From positions 1,088,001-1,152,000 of the forward strand of contig CBDCMT010000001.1 in NCBI GenBank assembly GCA_965219095.1: 64,000 bases of DNA, written 5' to 3'. Each line of letters begins with the position of its first letter. Position 1 is the first letter of the stretch. The notes beneath the pieces are model-generated. The model had not been told where the DNA came from. It made no database searches and saw only the letters and a program-made list of their open reading frames with translations. The stretch is from Bdellovibrionales bacterium (GTDB lineage Bacteria; Bdellovibrionota; Bdellovibrionia; Bdellovibrionales; UBA1609). This document shows positions 5,711 through 35,067 of this stretch, piece by piece. The position numbers were made by a program, and so were the translations under genes.

Positions 5711-8300
5711 ATGAAAACAAAAGACATTTTTAAAACTATTTTTCTGCTAGGAGTTCTAACAGTTGTTTTTCCTTCCGTAAGTTCTGCTACAAGAGGAAAA
5801 CCCAAAGCTGACATGAGAAAAAAAGGAATTGATGCAAAAAACATTATCGGCAAGAACGTAAATAGTAAAGTAAGATTAGGAGAACTAGGAAAAATACTAG
5901 AACAGAAGAAAGTTTCTGATGAATCGTTCAATACGCTAAGAGCAGGAGCTGGAAAAGAACTTTTAGAGGCTCTTACAACATCTAATTAAAGCAGATGATG
6001 AAGCTAGTGTTCTGACCAGTAAATTTTTTCACAATTTTCAAGCCTTTAATCCAGGTCATTTTATTAAATTATTTTTATATTAAAAAGAATAAAAGTGAAA
6101 TGTTTAGAGTTATACCAATTCCAAAAGTTAATTCTACATTTTCATGTATAAGTTTGGATTTTTACTTCTAGAAATTTATAACTTTTAAGTATGGGTAAAG
6201 AGTGTATCAAATTCATTGGAAAGATATGATTTTCTAATGTTTATATACAATTTAGTTTACAGGCTCTTACAGGCTCGTCTCATTTTTTATAATGGAACTT
6301 TTCTCTGGCTGATTTTCTTGAAAAATTCCATTTTATTGTCATCTTCCGTCTGTTCATAATATTCACCCAAGCCTTGGTTCTTTTTCTTAAAGTTTCTATG
6401 TCAGGTATTCTTGATTTTCCTAAACATTGACGAGAGTACATATTGATTGCAATTTCTGCTTGATTTAACCAACTTCCATGACTCGGAGTATAATGAACCT
6501 CAAAGCGAGACCATAGATGCAAACCTCGATCTTTTCCATAAAAATCAGTAAGACTTTTTTTTCTATGAGTGTTCAAATTATCCATAACTAGAACAATCTT
6601 CTTGGAATCAGAATAATGTCTCTCAACAGAAGATAAAAACTTAGCAAAATCCGGACCTGTCCTTCTCTCTGTTACCTTATTCATATAAAAACCTCTCTTA
6701 GGCTCCACAGCACAGAAAACATTTGCTGTACCCTCTCTTTTATACTCATAATCTACTTTTTTTACTTCCGAGGGATGACAACCCGATGGAGGACGAACAT
6801 CATCAAGTAACTGAAGAGGCTTTTCATCAATACACACAACAGGCTTTCCTTTAATCGGAGGCTTCTCATACACTTTCAAAACATCCTCCATCCTCTCTAT
6901 AAATTCATCATTAAGCTCTGGTACACACCAACTCTTCTGTTGCCAAGGTTTTAGATCATGTTCTAAAAGAATAATCCTAACTTTTTCTTTGCTAATAGAG
7001 TCTACAATCTTGTTTTTTTCTGCCCTCTCTTTAATGAGCTCTAAAGTCCATCGATCAAAGCCCTCCGGAGGATCTGAGCAGACTATAGCTATAATCTTTG
7101 ACTTTATGCGATCATCAAACTTTGGAGGTTTTCCAGGACGAGGATCATCTTCAAGAGCTTTTTTCAGCCCAGAATTCTCATAGTTTTTTTGGATGTTGAA
7201 AACAGTTCTAGGAGTTATCTCTAAGTAATCTGCTGTCTCTATGGCAGTTAAATTTTTGTTCCTTAAGTTTAGAACATTGGCTCGATATATGGCTCTTGGA
7301 TTTTTAGACTTCTTTATAATTTTAAGAATTTCTCTCTTATCTTTTGGCTTTAATAAATTTAACATATGAGTATTAAAACATAAAAAAAAAAATAAATAAA
7401 ATGACCTGGATTAAAGGCTTGAAAATTGTGAAAAAAATTACTGGTCAGAACACTAGGGATATTCTTAGGACAATTTTTCCAAAAGAGTTGGCTGGATCTT
7501 GGAAACTCCGTTCTACATCAAAACAAATTTTGAGAGGAAGGCTAGGCCTTGGCCTTATAAATGTAAATAATTCTCAATGGCCCGGGCCTGAACCGATACC
7601 GATATCACGTGTAGTGGATGATCTTAAGTCTCTCCTCGATCAAAGAAAGGATACTAATTTTAGAGTTCAAATGGAAGAATTGATAGAAAGAGGAAGTTTT
7701 GATGTTGAGAAATTAACTGAGCAGGACATACAAAGAGATGACATAAGTTTAGCAGAACATCTTAGCCAAAAAGAAAATTCTTTGAAATTTATAAGCTCTT
7801 TAGTTAGCAGCAAAAGCCTTTGCCATTATGTTCATTTTTTTCTCGCAAAAGAAATTTTAATAGACAAATCAATAATGGAGAAGTTCTCCTCGTATTTTGA
7901 TGTTTGGGTTACGAAAGTCCTGATGAGAAGATTAAGATTTAAAGGGTTCTATACTTTTTTCGAAAACCCCATGCTAGACCTCTTGGCAAAAGATTTCGTA
8001 ATTCTAAAACACGCTCTCTTATGGGAAAGTTGGATTAAAGAATTGATAAGAATAAGGAGCTATGATTTTCAACGTACTCTATGGAAGAAAGTTTTGTCAA
8101 GAGAAATGGCAATGAAACATCCTCAGTGGGAAAAGTTAGTTAGAGCTTTAGACGAATCTCTTTTAAAAGACGAATCCATCCAAAAGCTTCTTTTAAAATA
8201 CAAGGCTGCCCAAGTAGCAGCACCAACGAAACAAGAAGAAAAACCTAACACAACTCCATCTTCAGAAAACGACAGCAACTCATGCAAATCATTTTTTTAG
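5711..8300 (+). pseudogene. Signal-peptide protein gene broken by a frameshift (about 5975) and an IS630 insertion (6007-7453)
   Basis: Signal peptide at 5711. Removing the IS joins ...LQHLIKADDEA to RDILRTIF in the 7401-8300 frame. Ends SNSCKSFF. Confidence 0.65.
6007..7453 (-). mobile_element. IS630 element type B with intact transposase (CDS 6280-7365)
   Basis: CIDEK, MDNLNTH and SWLNQAE motifs; IRs of about 55 bp (GTGTTCTGACCAGTAA...); inserted in CTAG with TA duplicated. Confidence 0.93.
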
Positions 8301-25761: not shown

Positions 25762-26225
25762 TATAAATTAAATTGCGTAACTGATTTTTTTCATTTTACA
25801 TCTTAACCTCACTTTTTTACACTTATTTTAACCCATCAATCGATTCACACAACAATAGATATACATAAAATAAACATATCTTATGAAAACTCAACCTCCC
25901 TTCAAAAAAAACTTTTTTAAAGCCTCCTAATTGAAACTTTTCCTTAAGTCAATTTTAAAATTTTAAATTTGAACATAAAAATGTCGAATTAATTTCTGTA
26001 ATTGGTATAAGGAGCCCTGTTCAGTGTATGACAGCAGGAAATCATCACAGGACTTTGAATCCCTTCCTATTTTAAGTTACAGGGTGTTTTTTGTTTATTT
26101 TGTCCTAAAATCCTGCTGAGTTATAACTAGTGTTCTGACCAGTAATTTTTTTCACAATTTTCAAGCCTTTAATCCAGGTCATTTTAAAAGAATCTGTGGG
26201 TTCCCGGAGGTTCTTTTGAGAAGGC
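25762..26225. mobile_element. Stack of IS remnants: IS630-A right end, ISL3 internal piece, IS630-B end, ISL3 hairpin
   Basis: 25763-26007 matches 5016-5260; about 26014-26103 matches the reverse complement of 58663-58752; 26127-26185 matches 6004-6062; hairpin at 26186-26225. Confidence 0.85.
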
Positions 26226-26377
26226 CAAAAATTTTATAAAAAATATAGTAAAAAAGTTAGTTGAACTTTTTTAATTGTCTTACTGTATAAAAAATGATAA
26301 TAATGATGAAAAAATAATTGCGCTGGGTGTTTCAGTTAGTTTCAGAGGATAAATACGATTTTAAGGAATACAATTTT

Positions 26378-27470
26378 ATGAACTTTAAAACCTTCTTGTT
26401 TGCTTTAAGCTTTTCAGTTTTTTTCTCATTCTCGCAGTCCACTTTTTCACAAACTCATGTGAGTTCAGACCAACTCACCGAAGCTATCAAAGAAGCTCGC
26501 CTCACAAATCCAGAACTTCGGTACATCAAAAACTTAGCTAAAAGAATGGGAGTCCGGGTCTGGCTTTTGGGAGGATCAGCCTCCAGCTTAGCTTACTATG
26601 TGAAAAAGGATCTAGAACGAAAGGAAAATGAGAACAAGGGCTGGTTTAAACCCCAAAAAGAACATTTCGATTACGACTACACAAAGATCTTTTTTCCCAC
26701 TCAGGATATAGATTTAGTCGTAGAAGGGGGGTCAGAGGAAAAAGTCTCAAGGCTAGAAGAAGAAATCTCTAAAAAGTTTCCCTACTTTCAAGGAAATAGC
26801 AATAAAAGTGCTTGGGAGGTAAGGCCTTTAAGAGAATCAAGAGGTCCAAAGGCACCTTTATTGGAAGGAGATGTATTAAAACAGCATACCGATTCTTATT
26901 CTGTGATGATGATAGAACTGAGCGAATCTAAAGATCCTGTAGTAAGAAGCATCAAGGAGTGGGATTCCAGAAACCCTTCCCTTTTAGAAGATCTTCTAAA
27001 AGGAGAAATAAGCTATTATGATTCAAAAAATCATAAAGAAACTCAAAGGTACAACGAGGGTATGAATCCTGAGATCTTTTCAGTCATCCGTTATTTGATT
27101 AAAATGTTTCAGTATGAACTAAAGCCTAAAAAAGAAGATTTAGAAAGGATTAAAGAAATTATAAATGAATTTTCAGCTTCAGAATTAAAAACAGGTTATG
27201 CGAAGTTCTGGTGGGAGATGAATGTAAGAAAATTATTTATGCAAAATTCTGATCTAGAGAGAACTTGGAGAGTGCTTGATGAATTAGGTTTAAAAGAAAA
27301 GCTCATAAGCCTGGGAGGAAATAAATGGGAAAAAGGAAGTCTTACTTTTTGGCTTCATAAAGAACCTTTAAGAACTAAGAAAATAGGAGAAGGAGAAGGA
27401 AGGACAGCTAAGGATCTGGGAATAGAGATCGTATCTCATGAAACAAGTGATTTCGAAGCTTATGAAATTA
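26378..27470 (+). pseudogene. Signal-peptide protein with a nucleotidyltransferase-like domain, 3' truncated
   Basis: Signal peptide MNFKTFLFALSFSVFFSFSQSTFS; VWLLGGS...QDIDLVV motif. The last 18 codons of the called ORF come from the hairpin element. Confidence 0.6.
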
Positions 27471-27518
27471 GCCTCCTCAAAAGAATCTGTGGGTTCCCGG
27501 AGGTTCTTTTGAGGAGGC
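27471..27518. repeat. 48-bp ISL3-end-derived fold-back mini-element
   Basis: Identical to 3744-3791. Confidence 0.85.
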
Positions 27519-28139
27519 AAATTTAATTGCTTGCTGATCTCTCGCAAAAGATGCACCCCCCCAACACCTACAGAACTTATAGGATGTTTGTTCAACTTGG
27601 CTTCAAGCTTCCCCGTAGATTGATTCTTCTTGCCCAAATAAACTCTTCTCTGACGAGATTGTTTTTTTTCTTTGTCCCAGTAACTGCTTATCTCATACAC
27701 ATAGATGCTTCCATTTCTTTTCTCTTCATACCTATAAGACATAGTTCAAATTGAACTATGTTTTAGGGGCTTTGTCAACTCCCTGTTGATGACTCAAAAC
27801 TCTTAACGACAGGATCAAATTTCAATCCAAAAACAGAGCCTATGAAAAACATAGCTTTAAAAAGACCTATAAAAATAGTGTGTTATAAGTTCTCCAGAAA
27901 AACTCAATGAGACTAAATTAACTCGTTCTTATGATTTATCAGGAGTATTCTGTTGAAAAAAAACAGGCTCTTAGTCCTGAAACCTAGTATCAAAATTAAC
28001 AGATTTCAGGAAGCATAGGCAAGAGTATTTATCTCTAAAAATTCTATAAAATCCTACTTTTTACAAGGGGGAATAAGAAATTTTCCAGATTCTGAGCAGA
28101 ACTTAAATCCTAGTGTATATTTTTTGTCGGGAATTTAGG
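27519..28139 (-). mobile_element. IS1634/IS4-like remnant (transposase N-terminus 27519-27742 plus end)
   Basis: YVYEISSYWDKEKKQSRQRRVYLGK N-terminal motif; candidate terminus CCTAAATTCCCGAC on the minus strand. Confidence 0.65.
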
Positions 28140-28489: not shown

Positions 28490-31400
28490 CTAAAAAATTT
28501 TGTTACAGACTCCTCCTCCTACACCATTTATAATATTATTAATTTTTTCTTCATTGAGCGCACCTTCCTTTAAAAGAGCTTGAGTAAAAGCTTCTACTGT
28601 TTCCTTTTTTTCATCTAAAATTTTATTAGCTACTTCTTCCGCCTCTTGAAATATTTCTGATCGAAAGTTCTTAAAATTCTTTTTCTTTCTCCATGAAGAG
28701 TTCCCTGCAGCACCAGACTCATAGAATTTCTTTGTGACCTTTTGAGCTTTTTCGTAATCATTAGACATTCCTGTATCATAAGGATAACCAGCTCTCTTTT
28801 GGCTGATTCCTCCAGCTAAAAGTTGAGCTACTAGTATGACAAGAGCCTCTCTATCAAGATTTAATTTAGGAATAGAAGAGTTTTCCTCTTCATATCGTGC
28901 ATAACCTGCAACATCACCTCCAGGAATGATAGTAAGATAAACTAATTTTTGGCCTGTTATGTGGGGATCATTGAGAACAGCATGCCCTGCTTCATGATAA
29001 GCTACTATTTTAGCCTCTTTTTTTCCGAGTAGTATCTTCTTTGTAGCATTCTGAGTTACGTCTAATGTTTCTTGGAAAAGCTTTGTGTTTTTAGAAGAAA
29101 CTTCTGCTGTAAAACTTACTTTTCTTTTAAAGTCTTTACCTTCGACATAAAAGGTTTTAGGAAGATTATCTTCCAAAGATAAGGTGATTGTAATAGAATC
29201 ATTTTGTTTATTTTCCTGGGTTAATCTAAATCGAGCTTGAGTAATAAGAGACTTGATTTGTTGGTCAACAACATTTTTCAAACTCCGGCCCCCTTGGCCT
29301 TGAGTAAAGAAGACTTCTGAAAAGGAATTTAAAAATTCCTTACTATAATTGATTTTGCCTCCCCATTTTTCAGTTTCTTTTTTAATAGGTTCTAAGAACT
29401 TTTCAACAATGACATTTACTTCGCTTGTTAATAAAGGCTTGTAAAGAGCAATGAGAGACATCCTGCTTAAGAAAGCTTCTGGAACCCCTGCCTCTAAGAG
29501 AAGCTTTCTTAATTGCTCTGTCTCTTTAGCCTCTTCCCAAATAGCTAAGCGCAGGTCCTCGTGGCTGACACCTTGAAAAATCTTTTCTCCATCATTTCCT
29601 GTAAAAATAAATGTATATTTTGATAGGTTATAAGTTTGATCTGTTACATTGGAAGTCCATTTTCCCTCATCGGTTAAGTTATAAAAATGTTTCATTATAG
29701 TTTCTTTTAAGTGCTTATCATAGCCTCCTGCATTAGAAGCTTCATCAAACACAATAACGCCACCAGTTGGATTGTTTCTCAGAGCTCGCTCAAAAAGACT
29801 TTCCCTATCTGAGCCTGCAAATCCTTTGGGGGAGCCAAAAATATCGTTCATTTGTCCTGTGTACGTTATGTTTGAAAGAGGTATAATGACAGCTCGCTCT
29901 TCACTTCCGTGAAAAATCTTAGCTATAACACGTGCTGTTTCTGTCTTTCCTGTACCTGTGCTTCCTAAAAGAAAGAAACTTAGAGGCTTCTTATTATTTG
30001 TGAAGCTTTTATGAGCTAAAATAGCTTGGCTTATCTTCTCAGCAAGCTCATCCTGACCTATAAGACTTTTTGTAAAGATCTCTTTAAAATGAATCAGCTT
30101 ATTTATGAATTCTTGGTTCTCAAAAACATCTTTAAATTTCTTTTTAGGAGCTGATGAAAGAATCTCATCTCCTCCTTTCTTTCTCTTAGATGAAACTTTA
30201 ACCTGACTTCCTTTTTCTAAAAGGCTGATCTGAATTACTTCCTGATCCTTTAAACTCCATTGAGAGCGAAAGTTGACGATAGCTTCTCCAATGTATTTTT
30301 CTAGATTTTTGATAACAATACGTACACCGTTTTGTGGATTAAAAACATTTTTCACAAGATATTCTATTAATTTATCATCAATCTCTAATTTTATTTTAAA
30401 AGTTTTTTCTGTATCTTTGATTATTTGATCAGCCTTTTTTCTTGCAATTCTCAATGCTAAATTTAAATCAATAGGATTAGCAATGATATAAGAATCCACT
30501 CTTTCAAGAATAAGGTTAGGGAGTTGAGCTGTGTCAAGTCCGTTAACTTTTTCCCTAAAGATATTTTTTATCATAGAGGGATTGTCTTTAAGAAGAGTTA
30601 TATGTTCATTCCACTCTCTTTCGGTCCAGTTTTTCATCCCTTTAGGAAATAAGACATTATCTCCTCGGTTGCTTGTTAAAAGAATAATGACGTTGTTCGC
30701 CTTTCTTATCTTCCCATCAGCACCTGTAATCGTTCCTGTATCGAAAAATTCCATAAATTTTTCCCAAAAATCTTTATGAGCTCTCTCTGCTTCATCTATA
30801 ATAATAATACCTCCTTTGCCTCCACGAGCTGGATCATCTAACCAATTCATAAGCTCTCCTGAAGTTTTATCAGAAGATATAACTCCCGGTGGTGCTCCCA
30901 ATAAAGCATTAAGAGAGAGGCTTCCATCTTTATATGTGTTGGCGTCAATATGCATCACTGGATTGTTTGCAGAAGGGAAAGCTAATTGAGTAAACTCTTT
31001 AGCAACCATGGTCTTTCCTACTCCTGTGGAACCTAGTAAAAGACCTACCCTGATTCTACGTTCTTTATCCTGGATGTTCTGAAGCCATAAATTAACAATA
31101 TCATTGATCATATGACTCTGACCGAGAACTTCTTCATTTAACTTCTTTTTTAAATCATCAGCATACTTTGCAAATCTTACCCCATCTCTAGGATCAGCAG
31201 GTAGATCATATCTTTTAATTAAAAAATCTGAAAAATCTTGCTTTGTAATAGAGACAGTCTTCTTATTTTCCCCTTTCCTTCTTTGAACAAAAATAGCTAA
31301 GTCCATAAGAGCTTTTATTGAAGCACTCACTCTTCCATTATCCGGAACAATAAATAGTGATTCCTCCACAACTCTCCTAATGACTTCATTGTCTTCGAAT

Positions 31401-32596
31401 TCAACCTGATATTTTCCTTCTATTTTGGGAATCCAAGAAAACTTTAAAAGCTCCATGACCTCTTCAACATTGAACTCAGGCACTGCAACCTTTTCAAAAC
31501 GACGTTTAATAGCATCGTTGTCTTTAAATTTAGCCATAAATTCTTTTGAGGTTGTCGCTCCTATAAAATGAATGCCGTTACGCTCAGAATCTAAAAAAGG
31601 CTTCAAAGATTCAACTTGAGATTTACTTAATGTATGGACTTCATCTAAAAATACAATGATGGGTTTTTTTGTAGCTTCTTGAATGGCAAGTACAGCTTTA
31701 AAATAATCTTCTATAGCAGCGGCTTGTGCAGAGGAGCTATCCGACAAAGCTATTTTAGAAATACGAGCTGGTGATGTAGAAAGCAGTTCAGCTTTTCTTA
31801 AATAATCATAAAAACTCAGATCAGGGAATTCTTTGTCTATGATCATTTGTGTTATCTTTTCAACAACAGTGGTTTTTCCAGAACCTGCCGGACCGATAAG
31901 AATGGGGTTTTTTCCTTTCAACCTCACAAGAATGTCAATTGTATGATTAGCTTCCTCATTTCTTCTATAAATAGTACGCTCAGGAGAATTTCTTTGGATA
32001 TCAGTAAGGAATTCATTGGTTCCGTTAAACAAAGTATCTACATATTCCATCAGTTTTCTTGAAGATACCTTAAGCAATTGATCTTTAAAGTATAAACTTT
32101 CTTTATCTTCTAATTGAGGATTTGTTTCTATTTTTTCCTCAAGATTTTCTATAGAACTCTCTATATGAGAGAATGAACGAGGGTCTATTCTTTCTTTGTT
32201 TTTATCTATTAATCCCTTCAAGTCATTAAAGTTATCATCATATTTCTTATGCACCATATTGGATAAGCTTACTAAAGCATCTCCAACTATATACGAATTA
32301 GGAGCATTGGAGGCTTTTATAGAGAATTCCTTCTTAATAGTTTCCATCAAAAATTCTATGACAACATTATTGTGATACTCCCCTAATTTTTTAAGAGAGT
32401 TGCTAGCTTCTATAAGTTTTTGAGTTGAGCGTCTAGGATTATATTCATCTTGAACTGGGCTTATTTTGTTAAATAAATTATATGCTTCTTCAAGCTTTGT
32501 TGAATCAGTCTGTTCTTGTGCGAAAGTTAGCCCATGAAGAGCCGCTAAAATAAAAAAAATGCATAAATATGAAATGATTGTTTTTAATATTTTCAT
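28490..32596 (-). CDS. Signal-peptide protein with three Clp-type AAA+ modules and a C-terminal peptidase M41 domain
   Basis: Walker A GPAGSGKT, GSTGVGKT, GSTGTGKT; Walker B VFLDE, IIIDE, IVFDE; IGATT...F..D.A.KRRF; AYHEAGHAV...TIIPGG...GMSND. Confidence 0.88.
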   Translation of the reverse strand: MKILKTIISYLCIFFILAALHGLTFAQEQTDSTKLEEAYNLFNKISPVQDEYNPRRSTQKLIEASNSLKKLGEYHNNVVIEFLMETIKKEFSIKASNAPNSYIVGDALVSLSNMVHKKYDDNFNDLKGLIDKNKERIDPRSFSHIESSIENLEEKIETNPQLEDKESLYFKDQLLKVSSRKLMEYVDTLFNGTNEFLTDIQRNSPERTIYRRNEEANHTIDILVRLKGKNPILIGPAGSGKTTVVEKITQMIIDKEFPDLSFYDYLRKAELLSTSPARISKIALSDSSSAQAAAIEDYFKAVLAIQEATKKPIIVFLDEVHTLSKSQVESLKPFLDSERNGIHFIGATTSKEFMAKFKDNDAIKRRFEKVAVPEFNVEEVMELLKFSWIPKIEGKYQVEFEDNEVIRRVVEESLFIVPDNGRVSASIKALMDLAIFVQRRKGENKKTVSITKQDFSDFLIKRYDLPADPRDGVRFAKYADDLKKKLNEEVLGQSHMINDIVNLWLQNIQDKERRIRVGLLLGSTGVGKTMVAKEFTQLAFPSANNPVMHIDANTYKDGSLSLNALLGAPPGVISSDKTSGELMNWLDDPARGGKGGIIIIDEAERAHKDFWEKFMEFFDTGTITGADGKIRKANNVIILLTSNRGDNVLFPKGMKNWTEREWNEHITLLKDNPSMIKNIFREKVNGLDTAQLPNLILERVDSYIIANPIDLNLALRIARKKADQIIKDTEKTFKIKLEIDDKLIEYLVKNVFNPQNGVRIVIKNLEKYIGEAIVNFRSQWSLKDQEVIQISLLEKGSQVKVSSKRKKGGDEILSSAPKKKFKDVFENQEFINKLIHFKEIFTKSLIGQDELAEKISQAILAHKSFTNNKKPLSFFLLGSTGTGKTETARVIAKIFHGSEERAVIIPLSNITYTGQMNDIFGSPKGFAGSDRESLFERALRNNPTGGVIVFDEASNAGGYDKHLKETIMKHFYNLTDEGKWTSNVTDQTYNLSKYTFIFTGNDGEKIFQGVSHEDLRLAIWEEAKETEQLRKLLLEAGVPEAFLSRMSLIALYKPLLTSEVNVIVEKFLEPIKKETEKWGGKINYSKEFLNSFSEVFFTQGQGGRSLKNVVDQQIKSLITQARFRLTQENKQNDSITITLSLEDNLPKTFYVEGKDFKRKVSFTAEVSSKNTKLFQETLDVTQNATKKILLGKKEAKIVAYHEAGHAVLNDPHITGQKLVYLTIIPGGDVAGYARYEEENSSIPKLNLDREALVILVAQLLAGGISQKRAGYPYDTGMSNDYEKAQKVTKKFYESGAAGNSSWRKKKNFKNFRSEIFQEAEEVANKILDEKKETVEAFTQALLKEGALNEEKINNIINGVGGGVCNKIF

Positions 32597-33215
32597 GGCT
32601 TATCACTATTTTTTATCGAACACCCTCTTTAATTATTTAAAAATCACCAACCTTTAAGTGATTTTAAACTTTGTATTAGAGAAATTCAATAGAGTATGTA
32701 TTTTTTTTAATGAAATAATAAAATTTACATAAGAGCTTTATATTATCGAGACATTTTGACAAAAACTAGGCCTATTCTCTGTGTGTGGATTTTGAAGTGC
32801 AATCAGTATAGAAGAAAAATCAAAAAGATATCTATGAGAATCTCTTATGACAAAGAGTTTTCTGTGGATTCTGAAAGGGAGATTATAAAAACAAGTTTTA
32901 ATAAAAACTGCCAGAACCTCCGGGAACCCACAGATTCTTTTGAGGAGGCGATTTTTCTTTTAAGAACTCTTTTCTGAAATTTAAAGGTAAAATCAACTAT
33001 TCTACTCTATCAAAAATTATCAAATCTTGGGAATACTCCACATCCCTTTTGCTTCCAGGAGAATGCGGCACTGTAAATTAAATTGTGTAACTGATTTTTT
33101 CATTTTAAATTATGGACTCTTTTTTGTAACATTCTTTGCAAAGCTCTTAATAATCAGGTCTTTCGTTATTACATTTTAAAATCATATAAAGAAGAACACC
33201 TGTACCCTCACAGGT

Positions 33216-35067
33216 TTATCTAATCCTTTTTTCTTCTTTAAGTTTCTTTAAATCTACCAACTTCTTTTCTCTTTTCCTAGGAGCATGAGCTAAGACTTCT
33301 ATACTCTTAAAAGCAGGCTTTTTTTCGTTTTTTATATTAATAATAATCTGTTCTGCAAAAGATAGGGCTTGTTCCGAGGATGTCCCATTTCTCGGTGGAA
33401 TTCTGTTCAAAAATGGAGCAGATAAGAGGACTCCCTGGTGGATTTTTAAGTCCACCTAGGATTTAATAAATATTTAGAATGAATTAAAAATTAAACAAAA
33501 GGAGTCCAAAATGAAGAATACAAAAGAAAAAATATCAATTCAAGAACTATCGGATCACAAGGAGATTCAAGATGCTGTTCATAACTATATGAAGCATAGA
33601 ATTCTTGACGTAATCTACTGGATATTTAATGACGAAGTCACTAAGCTCTGTGGTCCACTATACGATCGAGAGGAAGAATGCATGCGAAATGGAAGCGATC
33701 CTGGGTCTGTTTATGCTCAAGGACAAAGAGTTTCGATTCGAAAGCCCAGAGTTAAAAAAGACGGAAAAGATGTCAAACTGCGAACATACTCTGCTTTGAG
33801 AAACTACGATGTTTTCACTGAAAAGATTCAGAACCACCTTCTCCATGGAGTTTCAACAAGGGACTACGATCCTCTTTTAGAGGAGATCTCTGGTGGCACA
33901 GGAGTTAAGAAGAGTTCTGTTTCTAGAGCTTTTGTAAATTCCTCTAAGAAGGCTTTAGATGAGATAAGCTCTAAGGACTTGTCTAAGCATGAGTTTGTTT
34001 CAGTCATGATAGATGGAGTAGGCTTTGGAGATCGTACAGTGGTGGTTGCTTTAGGTATCGACGTGACGGGCAAAAAGCACATTATAGGGTTACGAGAAGG
34101 AACTACAGAAAATTGCGAGCTGACAAAAGATCTTTTAGAGAACCTTGTTTCTAGAGGTATGGATTCAGATAAGGGCTATCTTTTTGTTATTGATGGTTCT
34201 AAAGCTCTAAGGAAGGCTATCAAGGCAGTTTGGGGAAAAAAGTCTGTTGTTCAACGTTGCATTCGTCACAAAGAAAGAAATATCCTCAATTATTTGCCAA
34301 AAGAAAGACATCAAGAGTTTCGCATTCGTTGGAAAAGACTTCATGGTTCAGTAGATTATGAATCGGCTTTGAAAGAGCATGAGGAGTTAGTTTGTTGGTT
34401 GAAACAGATCAACCATTCAGCTTTAGAATCTCTTGAAGAAGCTTGTAAGGAGACTTTGACTGTGATTCGTCTTAAAGCTACTCCCTCCTTAAAAAAGACT
34501 TTACTGTCTACAAATCCTATAGAGTCCATGTTTTCCTACACAAGGTATAGAACAGGGAGAGTTAAGAACTGGAAAAGAGGAGCAGACCAAGTGAGTCGTT
34601 GGGCTGCTGTTACTCTCTTTGATGCTGAGAAAAGATTTAAACGAATCAGAGGCTTTATGTATTTAAAAAACTTTAAAGAAAACTTAGAAAAAATGGTTGC
34701 AAAACAAAGAAAGGTCGCTTAAACATGAAATCGCCCTCTAACTAATTCCACCGAGAAATGGGACATCCTCCTTGTTCCAGTCTCTTTTTATCTGTATATT
34801 GCCCCAAATGTTGAATGGTTTTTTGGATGACTTTATTCTGCACTCTCTTGTTCTCTACAATCTGAACTGAAATAGAACCATTTTCTCTTGAAATCTTTTT
34901 TACAAACATATTTAAATATTAAAAGAAGTTTCCAGTCCTGAAAAGACCTCAAAAAAAGATTTCTGACACTACAAATGCACTTTCTGGAAAAATACCCCCC
35001 AACTCTGTTTTAAACATAGCCTGCACACTTTTATGAAGTTTTAGTAGTGGAAAATGCTGAAGTCGGG
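33216..35067 (-). mobile_element. IS1634-family remnant interrupted by IS256
   Basis: ATG at 34909 gives MFVKKISRENGSISVQIVENKRV..., which rejoins ...EQALSFAEQII after IS256 is removed; end CCCGACTTCAGC. Confidence 0.8.
33376..34770 (+). mobile_element. IS256-family element, intact (CDS 33511-34722)
   Basis: 27-bp perfect IRs GAGGATGTCCCATTTCTCGGTGGAATT; 8-bp TSD CTTGTTCC; GVSTR, IDG, QRCIRHK and STNPIES motifs. Confidence 0.96.

Follow-up and report, generated by a model that had tools for sequence, protein, structure and literature searches.

Gene and Domain Architecture

The window analyzed here is a stretch of 64,000 nucleotides from a Bdellovibrionales bacterium, and a single open reading frame of 1368 aa with zero internal stops occupies positions 28490–32596 of its reverse strand (Table 1). 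The encoded protease is organized in the order of a predicted Sec-type signal peptide, an N-domain, a Clp D1 module, two Clp D2 modules (D2a and D2b), a β-linker, an M41 peptidase, and a cysteine (Cys) tag. A Pfam scan of the protein returned AAA at residues 232–369, two AAA_2, two ClpB_D2-small, and Peptidase_M41, the last scoring 50.3 bits (cut-off 29.9); residues 27–201 gave no Pfam match, and HEAT_2 was matched weakly (E-values of 2e-4 to 0.085, under the cut-off) in four of eight homologue N-domains. The AlphaFold monomer model (pLDDT 85) contains three AAA+ modules and M41. The architecture claimed in an earlier note on this DNA (i.e., a signal followed by a helical N-domain, then a D1 of ClpA/B type, a pair of D2-type modules, and finally an FtsH-like M41) is thus borne out by Pfam, motifs, and the model.

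Table 1. Features of the protease locus (coordinates in the window).
Feature	Coordinates	Strand	Remarks
Convergent neighbor: signal peptide + CCA-type nucleotidyltransferase	26318..27526	+	cut short at repeat/IS remnant
Whole protease gene	28490..32596	-	1368 aa; ORF, Pfam, NCBIfam, AlphaFold model, tree
Terminal tag C-x-x-hydrophobic-F	28490..28516	-	C1364 at 28505-28507; short low-confidence helix in AlphaFold model
M41 zinc peptidase	28517..29044	-	residues ~1185-1360; H1201, E1202, H1205, D1280
Small β-stranded linker joining D2b to peptidase	29060..29194	-	residues ~1135-1179; AlphaFold model
D2b AAA+ module	29222..30085	-	residues 838-1125; best conserved module
D2a AAA+ module	30257..31153	-	residues 482-780
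D1 AAA+ module, ClpA/B type	31277..31984	-	residues 205-440; intact here
Helical N-domain	32012..32518	-	residues ~27-195; variable among family members; putative substrate selector
Predicted Sec signal peptide	32519..32596	-	residues 1-26; sequence, hydropathy, family statistics; heuristic
Flanking insertion sequence	33376..34770	+	whole transposase-like ORF 33511-34722, perfect 27-nt inverted repeats; context only

As three in-frame stops immediately precede the ATG, the protein truly starts at the hydrophobic leader, barring an internal start. A short-read contig of 4727 nt, possibly from the same sample as the window, spans the gene with 0 differences. A frameshift or an assembly chimera is ruled out by the single ORF, this contig, and the same architecture in more than 100 homologues. 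Recent acquisition as foreign DNA was also rejected (GC3 of 0.25 vs. a genome median of 0.27). A promoter and terminator scan, which gave 21 and 2 sites vs. 19.4 and 3.0 in shuffles, was uninformative.

AAA+ Modules and M41 Peptidase

The Walker A motifs lie at residues 235, 522, and 878, and each of the three modules in the window protein has its Walker B acids intact, so that the earlier reading of three intact Walker A/B pairs holds for its sequence. Catalytic sites and leaders were compared across 106 full-length family members. D1 is degenerate or absent in some of them and, with the Walker A lysine in 75/106, is the degenerate module family-wide. In D2a, the Walker A lysine is retained in 103/106 members, the Arg finger in 101, and sensor 2 in 100; its Walker B Asp, present in the window protein, is replaced by Asn in 77/106. 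D2b has the Walker A lysine in 106/106, the Arg finger and sensor 2 in 105 each, and a mostly aromatic pore loop, and we infer that this module, beside the protease, would be the main motor. Deviating pore loops had been noted previously; D1 indeed has no GxxYRG, but the third module deviates little, its G-F-A-G being in register with the canonical G-Y-V-G (Y/F/H in 60/106 members). The reported absence of an IGF/IGL ClpP-docking motif stands: no IGF/IGL/MGF loop follows sensor 1, a soft negative as the genome's own ClpA (IGA) likewise escaped the pattern. Both D2 modules have a helical insertion there instead, in the sequence and in the AlphaFold model.

HEAGH of the peptidase begins at residue 1201, and GMSND aligns with GAAND from solved FtsH chains, in agreement with its earlier assignment as the third-ligand motif; its Asp (D1280) is presumably the third zinc-ligand residue. 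All four M41 catalytic residues are kept in 100/106 members. A fold search with D2b plus M41 against the PDB resulted in a clean split between ClpB/C D2 chains and FtsH chains.

Leader and Predicted Export

The leader of the window protein is composed of a basic n-region, a hydrophobic core, and a small-residue cleavage site, with no lipobox or Tat motif. The sole 19-aa hydrophobic window of the protein begins at residue 1, which agrees with the earlier statement that there is no second transmembrane helix; an internal transmembrane segment occurs in 1 of 110 proteins of the family. By a home-made signal-peptide heuristic, 87/106 full-length members have a leader with N-in/C-out charge polarity, and the predicted export signal is therefore a property that the homologues keep. 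Among these leaders, the n-region is positive in 85/87 and the segment following the h-region is neutral or acidic in 73/87, a polarity of the export type that speaks against an uncleaved anchor facing the cytoplasm. The hydrophobic core has a median of 8 residues; an AxA-type site is found in 62/87, a lipobox in 3, and a Tat motif in 0. Many of the 19 members that fail the heuristic resemble, as judged by eye, late start calls.

Terminal Cysteine Tag

The protein ends in a tag that is missing from the earlier note, and C1364 within it is the sole Cys of the mature chain. Family-wide, the tag takes the near-invariant terminal form C-x-x-hydrophobic-[L/F/Y]. In 102/110 proteins, the last 40 residues include a Cys, vs. 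4% expected from the Cys content of the protein bodies; the tag Cys is invariant in 44/44 aligned rows and lies 5–15 residues from the end in 123/139. As a pattern, the tag is short and degenerate. The form C-x-x-hydrophobic-F/L is enriched in this genome (12/491 vs. 5/1333, p 2e-4), and neither looser tests (a Cys anywhere among the final 8 residues; Cys at −5) nor the N-terminal form (7/424 vs. 16/1016) gave enrichment there. In unselected 400-kb samples, the pattern occurred in 5/80, 6/46, and 0/67 signal-bearing ORFs, several of which were false matches to lipoprotein or signal cysteines. Prc/Tsp protease, subtilase, and M28 peptidase, none of which needs a cytoplasm, also match the pattern.

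A cysteine switch, in which the tag Cys would sit on the M41 zinc, is an unlikely general role, since most tagged proteins are not metalloproteases; for this protease it is conceivable. A search of the genome for DsbB gave no match; as VKOR is present, periplasmic disulfide formation is possible. Leaderless alphaproteobacterial copies of the protease still carry the tag, which may thus be structural as well.

Neighboring Genes and Tagged Proteins

Whole paralogues of the truncated nucleotidyltransferase (NTase) neighbor are encoded elsewhere in the genome and have an added ADP-ribosyltransferase (ART)-like domain and a terminal Cys tag. The family profile finds nothing in the PDB by sequence and no useful Pfam match, and only fold searches place it, with Z 12.5 for the CCA-type NTase and Z 5–5.8 for the ART-like domain. 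Its tag is at the C-terminus in 16/22 members and at the mature N-terminus in 4/22, never at both; 4/4 members with the N-terminal tag end in an added FGE domain. The protease and the NTase-ART family occur together in 10 genomes vs. 2.1 expected, a figure overstated by non-independent kin, and are adjacent or fused in 9 of these 10, with fusions in both orders (P0125 and P0126). Conversely, 12/22 NTase-family genomes have no protease match and 29/39 protease genomes have no NTase match.

Other signal-bearing tagged neighbors contain PRPP synthetase, SLOG, Macro, EEP, ParB-like, EndoU, and C1B peptidase domains, and at one locus (L046) the protease has tagged genes around it, occupying the center of the island that they form. 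Many exported tagged proteins (NTase-ART, PRPP synthetase, SLOG, Macro, and nucleases) require cytoplasmic co-substrates or targets. Besides the NTase family, no recurrent neighbor of the protease was detected, and no linked translocon genes were found. PADLOC models gave only partial AAA-domain matches to the protease (PDC-M37B and DolB) and no match to the NTase neighbor.

Family Distribution and Genome Context

The protease family is uncharacterized, and no description of it or of the Cys tag was found in the openly accessible literature searched. It occurs in 39/401 genomes of the phylum, the named matches being mostly from Bdellovibrionota. As about 10% of the genomes carry the gene, the protease is not core predation machinery, and this patchy spread, together with the ClpA, ClpB, and FtsH that the genome encodes separately, sets it apart from an already characterized housekeeping protease. 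Rhodoblastus and Roseiarcus are cultured carriers. Alphaproteobacterial copies are rare (1/401 genomes of that order, namely the seed itself) and nest among signal-bearing members (SH-aLRT 97); they have no clear leader, retain the D2 and M41 sites, and appear, from their sequences, to have lost the signal, as would be expected if the enzyme operates in a cytoplasm. The best six matches in a search for shorter stand-alone D2b plus M41 forms were pieces of this same family.

The earlier note took survival of the gene between decayed insertion sequences as a hint of selection. This argument is weak, and the flanking elements are not all decayed, as the element at 33376–34770, whose transposase label is read off the sequence, retains an intact ORF and perfect inverted repeats; the real sign of selection is the conservation of the catalytic sites over 106 divergent members. 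The genome (94% complete) contains three secretins, and searches of it for Hcp (T6SS) and flagellin gave no match. Given the flagellin result and the repeated, IS-like copies that make up 794/2721 ORFs, the organism may be tied to a host instead of being a predator of the classic kind. A search for an ATP/ADP translocase also gave no match, though its control was silent too.

Proposed Mechanism and Alternatives

Bacterial AAA+ proteases are regarded as in-house machines, as they require ATP and the periplasm has none. We estimate a probability of roughly 55% that the protease is a soluble ATP-dependent unfoldase-protease that is exported and reaches the interior of a prey or host cell as one of a tagged cargo class. 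Delivery into another cell, already proposed in the earlier note, is indirectly suggested by the neighboring exported enzymes, which need ATP, NTP, or NAD+. None of the three outcomes that would have overturned the note's proposal (an uncleaved anchor facing the cytoplasm, homologues devoid of signal peptides, and a characterized housekeeping protease) was observed. Sec would carry the chain over the inner membrane of the maker with loss of the signal peptide, and the enzyme would lie idle in the ATP-free periplasm, so that the maker would be protected. Exit may then use a machine built on a secretin (T2SS, T4aP, or Tad), with the terminal Cys helix as a putative signal by which a small cargo class is sorted or tethered, plausibly acting via an intermolecular disulfide that would be reduced upon arrival. 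By analogy with ClpA/B and FtsH, a ring, probably a hexamer, would assemble in the ATP-containing cytoplasm of the prey bacterium or host. Substrates would be captured by the variable N-domain and D1, pulled and unfolded by D2b and D2a, and cut by the fused M41 ring, resulting in removal of target proteins and release of peptides; the co-encoded tagged enzymes would alter the RNA and nucleotide pools of the target alongside the protease. According to two reports, B. bacteriovorus degrades prey contents while the prey cytoplasmic membrane stays intact (PMC13689555), and the bdelloplast receives nucleases that it secretes by means of signal peptides (PMC7925074).

The same enzyme and victim could also be joined by ordinary Sec and T2SS export into the prey envelope without a dedicated step across the membrane, with activity only after a breach of the inner membrane leaks ATP and with the tag as no more than a mark for outer-membrane export or tethering. 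In the model currently put forward for epibiotic B. exovorus, the inner membrane of the prey becomes disrupted (PMC12428579), and B. bacteriovorus is reported to place a pore protein in the prey inner membrane (10.1101/2022.06.13.496000); the protease has no linked translocon gene, and certain tag-pattern proteins require no cytoplasm, all of which would fit. We nevertheless consider this route rather unlikely, as endobiotic predation is said to leave the prey membrane intact (PMC13689555). ATP would be short-lived in a breached cell, and a sustained NTP supply would be needed for the three tiers of conserved ATPase, for PRPP synthetase, and for the NTase. Improbable, in our estimate, is a role as motor or maturase that unfolds, pulls in, or processes the co-delivered tagged enzymes rather than as a killer. 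HSP101 of the Plasmodium PTEX translocon and the FtsH-like plastid-import motors are analogies, and HSP101 chains are among the PDB matches; the NTase-ART family is closely linked to the protease and fused with it in both orders, and this and the mid-island position in L046 point the same way. However, each family is often found in genomes that gave no match to the other, an active protease ring under the pore would destroy threaded cargo, and the protease bears the tag just as cargo does.

The remaining two readings keep the enzyme with its maker. In the first, it would serve quality control of the envelope or digestion outside the cell, located on the maker's surface or in the periplasm and either ATP-independent or run on scavenged ATP; a Sec leader by itself proves periplasmic delivery only, and the D1 that is degenerate in some family members and the Asn in Walker B of D2a would be understandable. 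The D2b catalytic elements, every one kept in 100–106 of the 106 members, are hard to explain without ATP turnover, the periplasm contains no ATP, and the patchy spread and the nucleotide-metabolism enzymes among the tagged neighbors ill fit housekeeping, which leaves this reading with a low probability. That the leader is an uncleaved anchor, with the enzyme facing the maker's cytoplasm as a one-helix FtsH, would suit the single N-terminal hydrophobic segment and the ATP and protein substrates all available there, and the leaderless alphaproteobacterial copies make cytoplasmic life possible. It is very improbable in view of a charge polarity opposite to that of a reverse anchor (85/87 before and 73/87 after the core), the short core, the AxA-type sites, and the FtsH, ClpA, and ClpB already present in the genome.

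An exported AAA+ protease would imply powering by the ATP of another cell. On the preferred reading of delivery into a target cell, the Cys tag may point to a so far undescribed route by which Bdellovibrio-like bacteria deliver proteins. Secretion in B. bacteriovorus is termed largely unexplored (PMC12622784), and the evidence on what its secretion systems do is termed limited (PMC12428579). As a tentative wider proposal, to which we give somewhat less than even odds, Bdellovibrionota would use an as yet undescribed two-step route by which Sec-exported enzymes pass the inner membrane of the target and enter its cytoplasm, the recognized feature being a single unpaired Cys in a short helix of amphipathic character at either cargo end; the cargo kit would take over the ATP, NAD+, RNA, and proteome of a living target, and its flagship, a Clp-type triple motor with an FtsH peptidase, would add an architectural class to the bacterial AAA+ proteases and be the first of them shown to act as an exported effector. 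The five-residue terminal tag with its essential-looking Cys offers a direct handle for mutation, for transfer to a reporter, and for cross-linking to a partner, and it predicts a cargo list from genomes. Even without delivery, a single-chain three-motor Clp/M41 protease would be a new machine for studies of unfolding and degradation.

Comparison with Known Systems

Judged from its sequence, the protease is neither FtsH nor ClpA/B/C/V, and NCBIfam models of ClpA, ClpB, ClpV, and FtsH all score it far under their cut-offs. Like the M41 AAA+ metalloproteases (FtsH, YME1, and AFG3L2), it contains a C-terminal M41 with HEAGH and a GAAND-type third ligand in the same chain downstream of an AAA+ motor. 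Its motor, however, is of the Clp D2 type with three modules, whereas FtsH has one classical AAA module with AAA_lid_3; it has no transmembrane pair or FtsH_ext domain, is predicted to be exported, and scores 51 on the FtsH model against a cut-off of 600. The D2a and D2b profiles match the genome's own FtsH over the Walker A region only. In place of the cytoplasm-facing membrane anchor of FtsH, there is one short leader with export polarity by the heuristic.

The order of D1 followed by D2 and the Walker, sensor, and Arg-finger elements match those of ClpA/ClpB/ClpC/ClpV (Hsp100 class I), and ClpC, ClpA, and ClpB are the best fold matches. The differences are an extra D2, a fused peptidase, a signal peptide, no M-domain match, and no IGF loop; of 41 Pfam families, the 25 listed do not include Clp_N, and the precomputed list has none. 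Scores of 250–273 on the Clp models compare with cut-offs of 885–1232, and D2a and D2b fall outside the 24-row canonical ClpA/B/C/V D2 clade (100/97; midpoint-rooted 55-row tree). Unlike ClpV/TssH, the protease has no recurring T6SS neighbors, in a genome (94% complete) with no Hcp.

Uncharacterized phage and Campylobacterota proteins that combine Clp-D2/AAA with M41 are a lead only. ESM Atlas clusters of 580–720 aa, mostly viral, with ClpB_D2-small in 53–76% and M41 in 93–96% of members, score 0.95–0.97 vs. D2b plus M41, and phrog_30773 (666 positions) matches the M41 part; these proteins are about half the length of the protease, too short for three modules. A viral origin was rejected, as viral contigs gave no alignable relative and phage tblastn only partial Clp or FtsH matches. 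No relative covering 80% was found in cultured phages, where the one match inspected was a canonical FtsH.

Bdellovibrio secretes signal-peptide enzymes into the bdelloplast, namely the nucleases Bd0934 and Bd3507 and the protease Bd2269 (PMC7925074, PMC12546842). These share the signal peptide but are simple hydrolases, for which the available text of both papers mentions neither an ATP requirement nor a terminal Cys signal. The eukaryotic signal-peptide AAA+ proteins (Plasmodium HSP101/PTEX, torsin, and Skd3/CLPB) are also Clp-type ATPases that leave the cytosol, and HSP101 and CLPB chains are among the PDB matches of the protease. They operate in ATP-containing eukaryotic lumina and are not known to carry a fused protease. 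Like the Cys tag, MYXO-CTERM, Synerg-CTERM, and CaaX are short motifs at a terminus, each built around a conserved Cys and common to unrelated exported proteins. Compared with MYXO-CTERM-type signals, the tag of the protease has no C-terminal transmembrane helix or basic cluster and, unlike all three, the Cys tag can shift to the mature N-terminus.

Domain architecture

The protease gene is a single uninterrupted frame with in-frame stops directly upstream, and a 4727-nt contig from a public run, possibly of the same sample, agrees with it at 0 differences. Pfam models for AAA, AAA_2 (twice), ClpB_D2-small (twice) and Peptidase_M41 score above cut-off. Residues 169-1368, modelled with AlphaFold from 37 sequences (pLDDT 85.1, pTM 0.57), are predicted to form three AAA+ modules (a ClpA/B-type D1 and two D2-type modules, D2a and D2b), a pair of small beta-linkers and the helices of M41, and to end in a helix of low confidence. 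Foldseek placed ClpC, ClpA and ClpB at the top ranks, covering about 40% of the model, and a profile built from the C-terminal 550 residues matched ClpB/C D2 at positions ~12-320 and FtsH at 365-560 of PDB sequences, none of which had both the D2 and the FtsH part as its best stretch among the best 60 of 124. The Pfam matches, the model and the profile match bear out the proposal in the earlier note that three Clp-type modules and an FtsH-like M41 peptidase share one chain, and its choice of GMSND as the third-ligand motif beside HEAGH holds as well, these motifs aligning with GAAND and HEAGH of solved FtsH. Separate ClpA-, ClpB- and FtsH-sized proteins are also encoded in the source genome.

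Coordinates of the protease gene and related features
Feature	Location	Strand	Remark
Protease gene	window 28490-32596	-	1368 aa
Neighbour-family ORF	window 26318-27526	+	truncated
65-nt palindromic repeat	window 26186-26228		high-copy
65-nt palindromic repeat	window 27462-27527		high-copy
65-nt palindromic repeat	window 32910-32955		high-copy
Cys-tagged ORF	window 7401-8300		N-terminus apparently missing
Signal-bearing gene with the same tail as ORF 7401-8300	source genome C2:76369		
Homologue of the 960-aa gene	source genome C2:66006		
Homologue of the 960-aa gene	source genome C2:91998		
Island of tagged genes	L046:1182-19738		
Rhodoblastus locus	L056:6923-15136		leaderless protease
Roseiarcus locus	L057:6836-15061		leaderless protease

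The protease family and its conserved sites

A word-seeded search gave 68 matches; besides the query, 22 of these have an M41 domain, with alignments that span 59-99% at 28-43% identity, and those with a name are Bdellovibrionales or Pseudobdellovibrionaceae. A D2b+M41 profile run against 1.84 billion representatives returned at least 150 proteins, nearly all family members. Both searches were pooled (159 proteins), 110 of which are at least 1000 aa long with a Met start, and four of a different, all-D2 type without M41 were set aside to leave 106 members. All four M41 residues are kept in 100 of the 106. In D2b, the Walker A Lys is invariant (106/106), and the Walker B Asp (100), Walker B Glu (104), Arg finger (105) and sensor 2 (105) are nearly so, with a pore aromatic (Y/F/H) in 60. 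D2a retains the Walker A Lys in 103/106 and the Glu in 101/106, its Walker B Asp in just 26 (Asn in 77), and the D1 Walker A Lys is present in 75/106; therefore, D2b, the motor adjoining the peptidase, is the most constrained. In a midpoint-rooted tree of 55 rows, D2a (100/100) and D2b fall outside the canonical ClpA/B/C/V D2 clade (100/97). Both D2 modules of one member (P0069) are of the D2b type, which suggests module replacement via duplication. Proteins of a separate group of ~1020 aa, labelled ClpA at source (P0196, P0201, P0202), have a signal-like leader and two to three canonical-clade Clp D2 modules, with no D1 and no M41, and represent a second sort of apparently exported Clp ATPase.

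Of 401 genomes searched in the phylum, 39 gave the gene, which was found in 29 of 204 genera. Among 31 loci from a species collection, 25 are named Bdellovibrionota, three Alphaproteobacteria and one 'Deltaproteobacteria', and one is a weak Clostridia match. Uncharacterised clusters that combine D2 with M41, for the most part viral, also appear in the ESM Atlas, as does one of 1292 aa from Bdellovibrionota, so that this pairing may extend beyond the present family. A literature search returned no description of the protease family or the terminal Cys signal. Neither is mentioned in the portions covered of PMC12428579, PMC13689555, PMC12622784, PMC3526173, PMC12419801, PMC12546842, PMC12994072, PMC7925074, PMC11656739 and 10.1101/2022.06.13.496000. 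The protein family is real, conserved and apparently undescribed.

Export signal

A hydrophobic leader is found in 21 of 21 Met-start homologues from the word-seeded search, with a best 11-residue hydropathy of 1.95-3.65 vs 0.7-1.98 in 45 ClpA/B/V controls. A signal-peptide heuristic is passed by 87 of the 106 members; the n-region is positive in 85 of these, and in 73 the uncharged stretch is followed by a neutral or acidic 15-residue segment. The hydrophobic core has a median of 8 residues, and an AxA-type site occurs in 62, a lipobox in three and a Tat motif in none. Many of the 19 failing members resemble, by eye, late start calls. The positive-inside rule is the basis for reading charge polarity as topology, and the polarity seen here would therefore place the enzyme outside the cytoplasm, whether the leader is cut or uncut. 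By these heuristic counts, the expectation of the earlier note that homologues would share an export-type leader, instead of a cytoplasm-facing anchor, stands.

The terminal cysteine tag

The tag, a terminal C-x-x-hydrophobic-[L/F/Y] string, contains C1364, the sole Cys of the mature window protein. This Cys is nearly invariant in 23 aligned rows and invariant in 44. Of 110 proteins, 102 have a Cys among their last 40 residues (4% expected from body content), and the body has no Cys at all in 47 of 106 members. Of 139 tails, 123 place the Cys 5-15 residues before the end; position +3 is L/A/I/V/F in 100 tails, and position +4 is L/F/Y in 108. In the source genome, 12 of 491 signal-bearing ORFs end in the strict tag, as against 5 of 1333 soluble ORFs of other kinds (p 2e-4); the enrichment weakens or vanishes with looser forms, and the tag's N-terminal form shows none. 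Near homologous genes, a loose tag occurs in 18 of 44 signal-bearing ORFs (at least 300 aa) vs 8 of 49 others, the 18 comprising ten N-terminal, eight C-terminal and no double cases. Unselected 400-kb samples from three genomes of the phylum gave 5/80, 6/46 and 0/67, several being false matches, and an alphaproteobacterial sample gave 0/21; given this sparseness, the exported proteins that bear the tag are few and clustered. One protease (P0013) and one neighbour-family member (P0218), encoded on contigs of equal length, have nearly identical 20-residue tails in which the Cys is the final residue, which suggests tail exchange between neighbours.

Neighbours and tagged proteins

Among 238 ORFs in 28 loci, a single neighbour family, to which the window's truncated ORF belongs, exceeds three loci, occurring in seven. 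The model of a whole paralogue (pLDDT 88.5) resembles CCA-adding enzymes (Foldseek E 4e-5; Z 12.5, rmsd 4.3, 208 aligned), and its residues ~316-453 resemble ADP-ribosyltransferase folds at Z 4.5-5.8, values that by themselves may reflect no more than a common arrangement. This NTase-ART family has nearly invariant GG and DxD motifs. Of the same 401 genomes, 22 carry it and 10 carry it together with the protease, vs 2.1 expected (kin not being independent), and in nine of these 10 the two genes lie within ~6 kb or are fused. Two fusions (P0125, P0126) have opposite orders, with no tag remaining at the junction. The tag is C-terminal in 16 of 22 NTase-ART rows (including four paralogues from the source genome), at the mature N-terminus in four, all of which end in an FGE domain, and absent in two; two further apparent N-terminal tags fall within signal peptides and were scored as C-terminal only.

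Further signal-bearing proteins with the tag contain PRPP synthetase, SLOG, Macro, EEP, ParB-like, EndoU, C1B peptidase, TPR or FGE domains. Among them is an amidoligase-like lead (Atlas 0.91; family on 24% of members), and many have no Pfam match. In the L046 island, ~10 co-oriented signal-peptide genes, most of them Cys-tagged, surround the protease, among them two SLOG, a PRPP synthetase, an NTase-ART, an EEP nuclease and three unknown paralogues. The NTase-ART family is expanded in the source genome, with four near-identical whole copies and many IS-broken pieces, lying in the window and at least ten other places. The 65-nt repeat stands on both sides of the protease gene in opposite orientation and cuts the neighbour short; contig depth there reaches ~350 vs ~5 on the gene.

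Leaderless alphaproteobacterial copies

The alphaproteobacterial carriers are Rhodoblastus, Roseiarcus and one MAG, whose copy is not a single frame. The copies from the two cultured genera, one of them in Rhodoblastus acidophilus DSM 137, have no clear leader, and their D1 Walker A is degenerate; the D2 motifs, the M41 motifs and the Cys tag are all retained. The gene upstream of them, also without a leader, is homologous to signal-bearing neighbours at locus L033. In a quick tree, the alphaproteobacterial copies nest with signal-bearing P0100, L033 and L035 (SH-aLRT 97-99), and among 401 genomes of that alphaproteobacterial order the gene was found in the seed alone. Most simply read, the gene would have been transferred out of Bdellovibrionota, have lost its export and have stayed in cytoplasmic use. 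At both cultured loci, the protease lies between an unknown 960-aa gene, with homologues at L033 and in the source genome, and a translationally coupled RPE65-family oxygenase.

Proposed mechanism and alternatives

The observed basis comprises the architecture, catalytic conservation, conservation of leader and tag, and gene linkage. The predicted export and a common terminal tag point to an enzyme class meant for another cell's interior. We favour, at slightly better than even odds (about 0.55), a Sec-exported protease that enters a target cell in a tag-dependent manner and carries out ATP-driven degradation there. The protease would be idle in the ATP-free periplasm and leave its maker through a secretin machine; entry might involve a disulfide tether, freed in the reducing cytoplasm, after which rings would assemble, with the variable N-domain and D1 capturing substrates. 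D2b would thread these via aromatic pore loops, as described for other AAA+ proteases (PMC12994072), and the M41 chamber would cleave them. The source genome (3.1 Mb, 94% complete) encodes three secretins, seven T2SSE-family ATPases above cut-off and VKOR; Hcp, flagellin and DsbB were not found in it. About 29% of its ORFs are repeated, IS-like copies; a predator that swims freely would not usually show this together with no flagellin found. The target would be either a prey bacterium or a eukaryotic host.

Two observations weigh on the other side: the tag pattern also occurs in a Prc/Tsp protease, a subtilase and an M28 peptidase, which goes against the pattern seen among the tagged proteins, and the retention of the tag in the leaderless alphaproteobacterial copies speaks against a role in export alone. 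The protease might act only after a membrane breach, which we consider unlikely. Service as a motor or maturase of co-cargo appears improbable, as does work in the maker's own envelope. A leader acting as an anchor for a cytoplasm-facing enzyme is highly improbable in view of the charge polarity.

Comparison with known proteases

The window protein shares HEAGH and a GAAND-type motif with FtsH, whereas its score to the NCBIfam FtsH model is far below that model's cut-off; the ClpA, ClpB and ClpV models likewise match, each far below its own cut-off. Judged from sequence, the family would resemble the FtsH or ClpAP unfoldase-protease in its working, but it falls outside membership in either.
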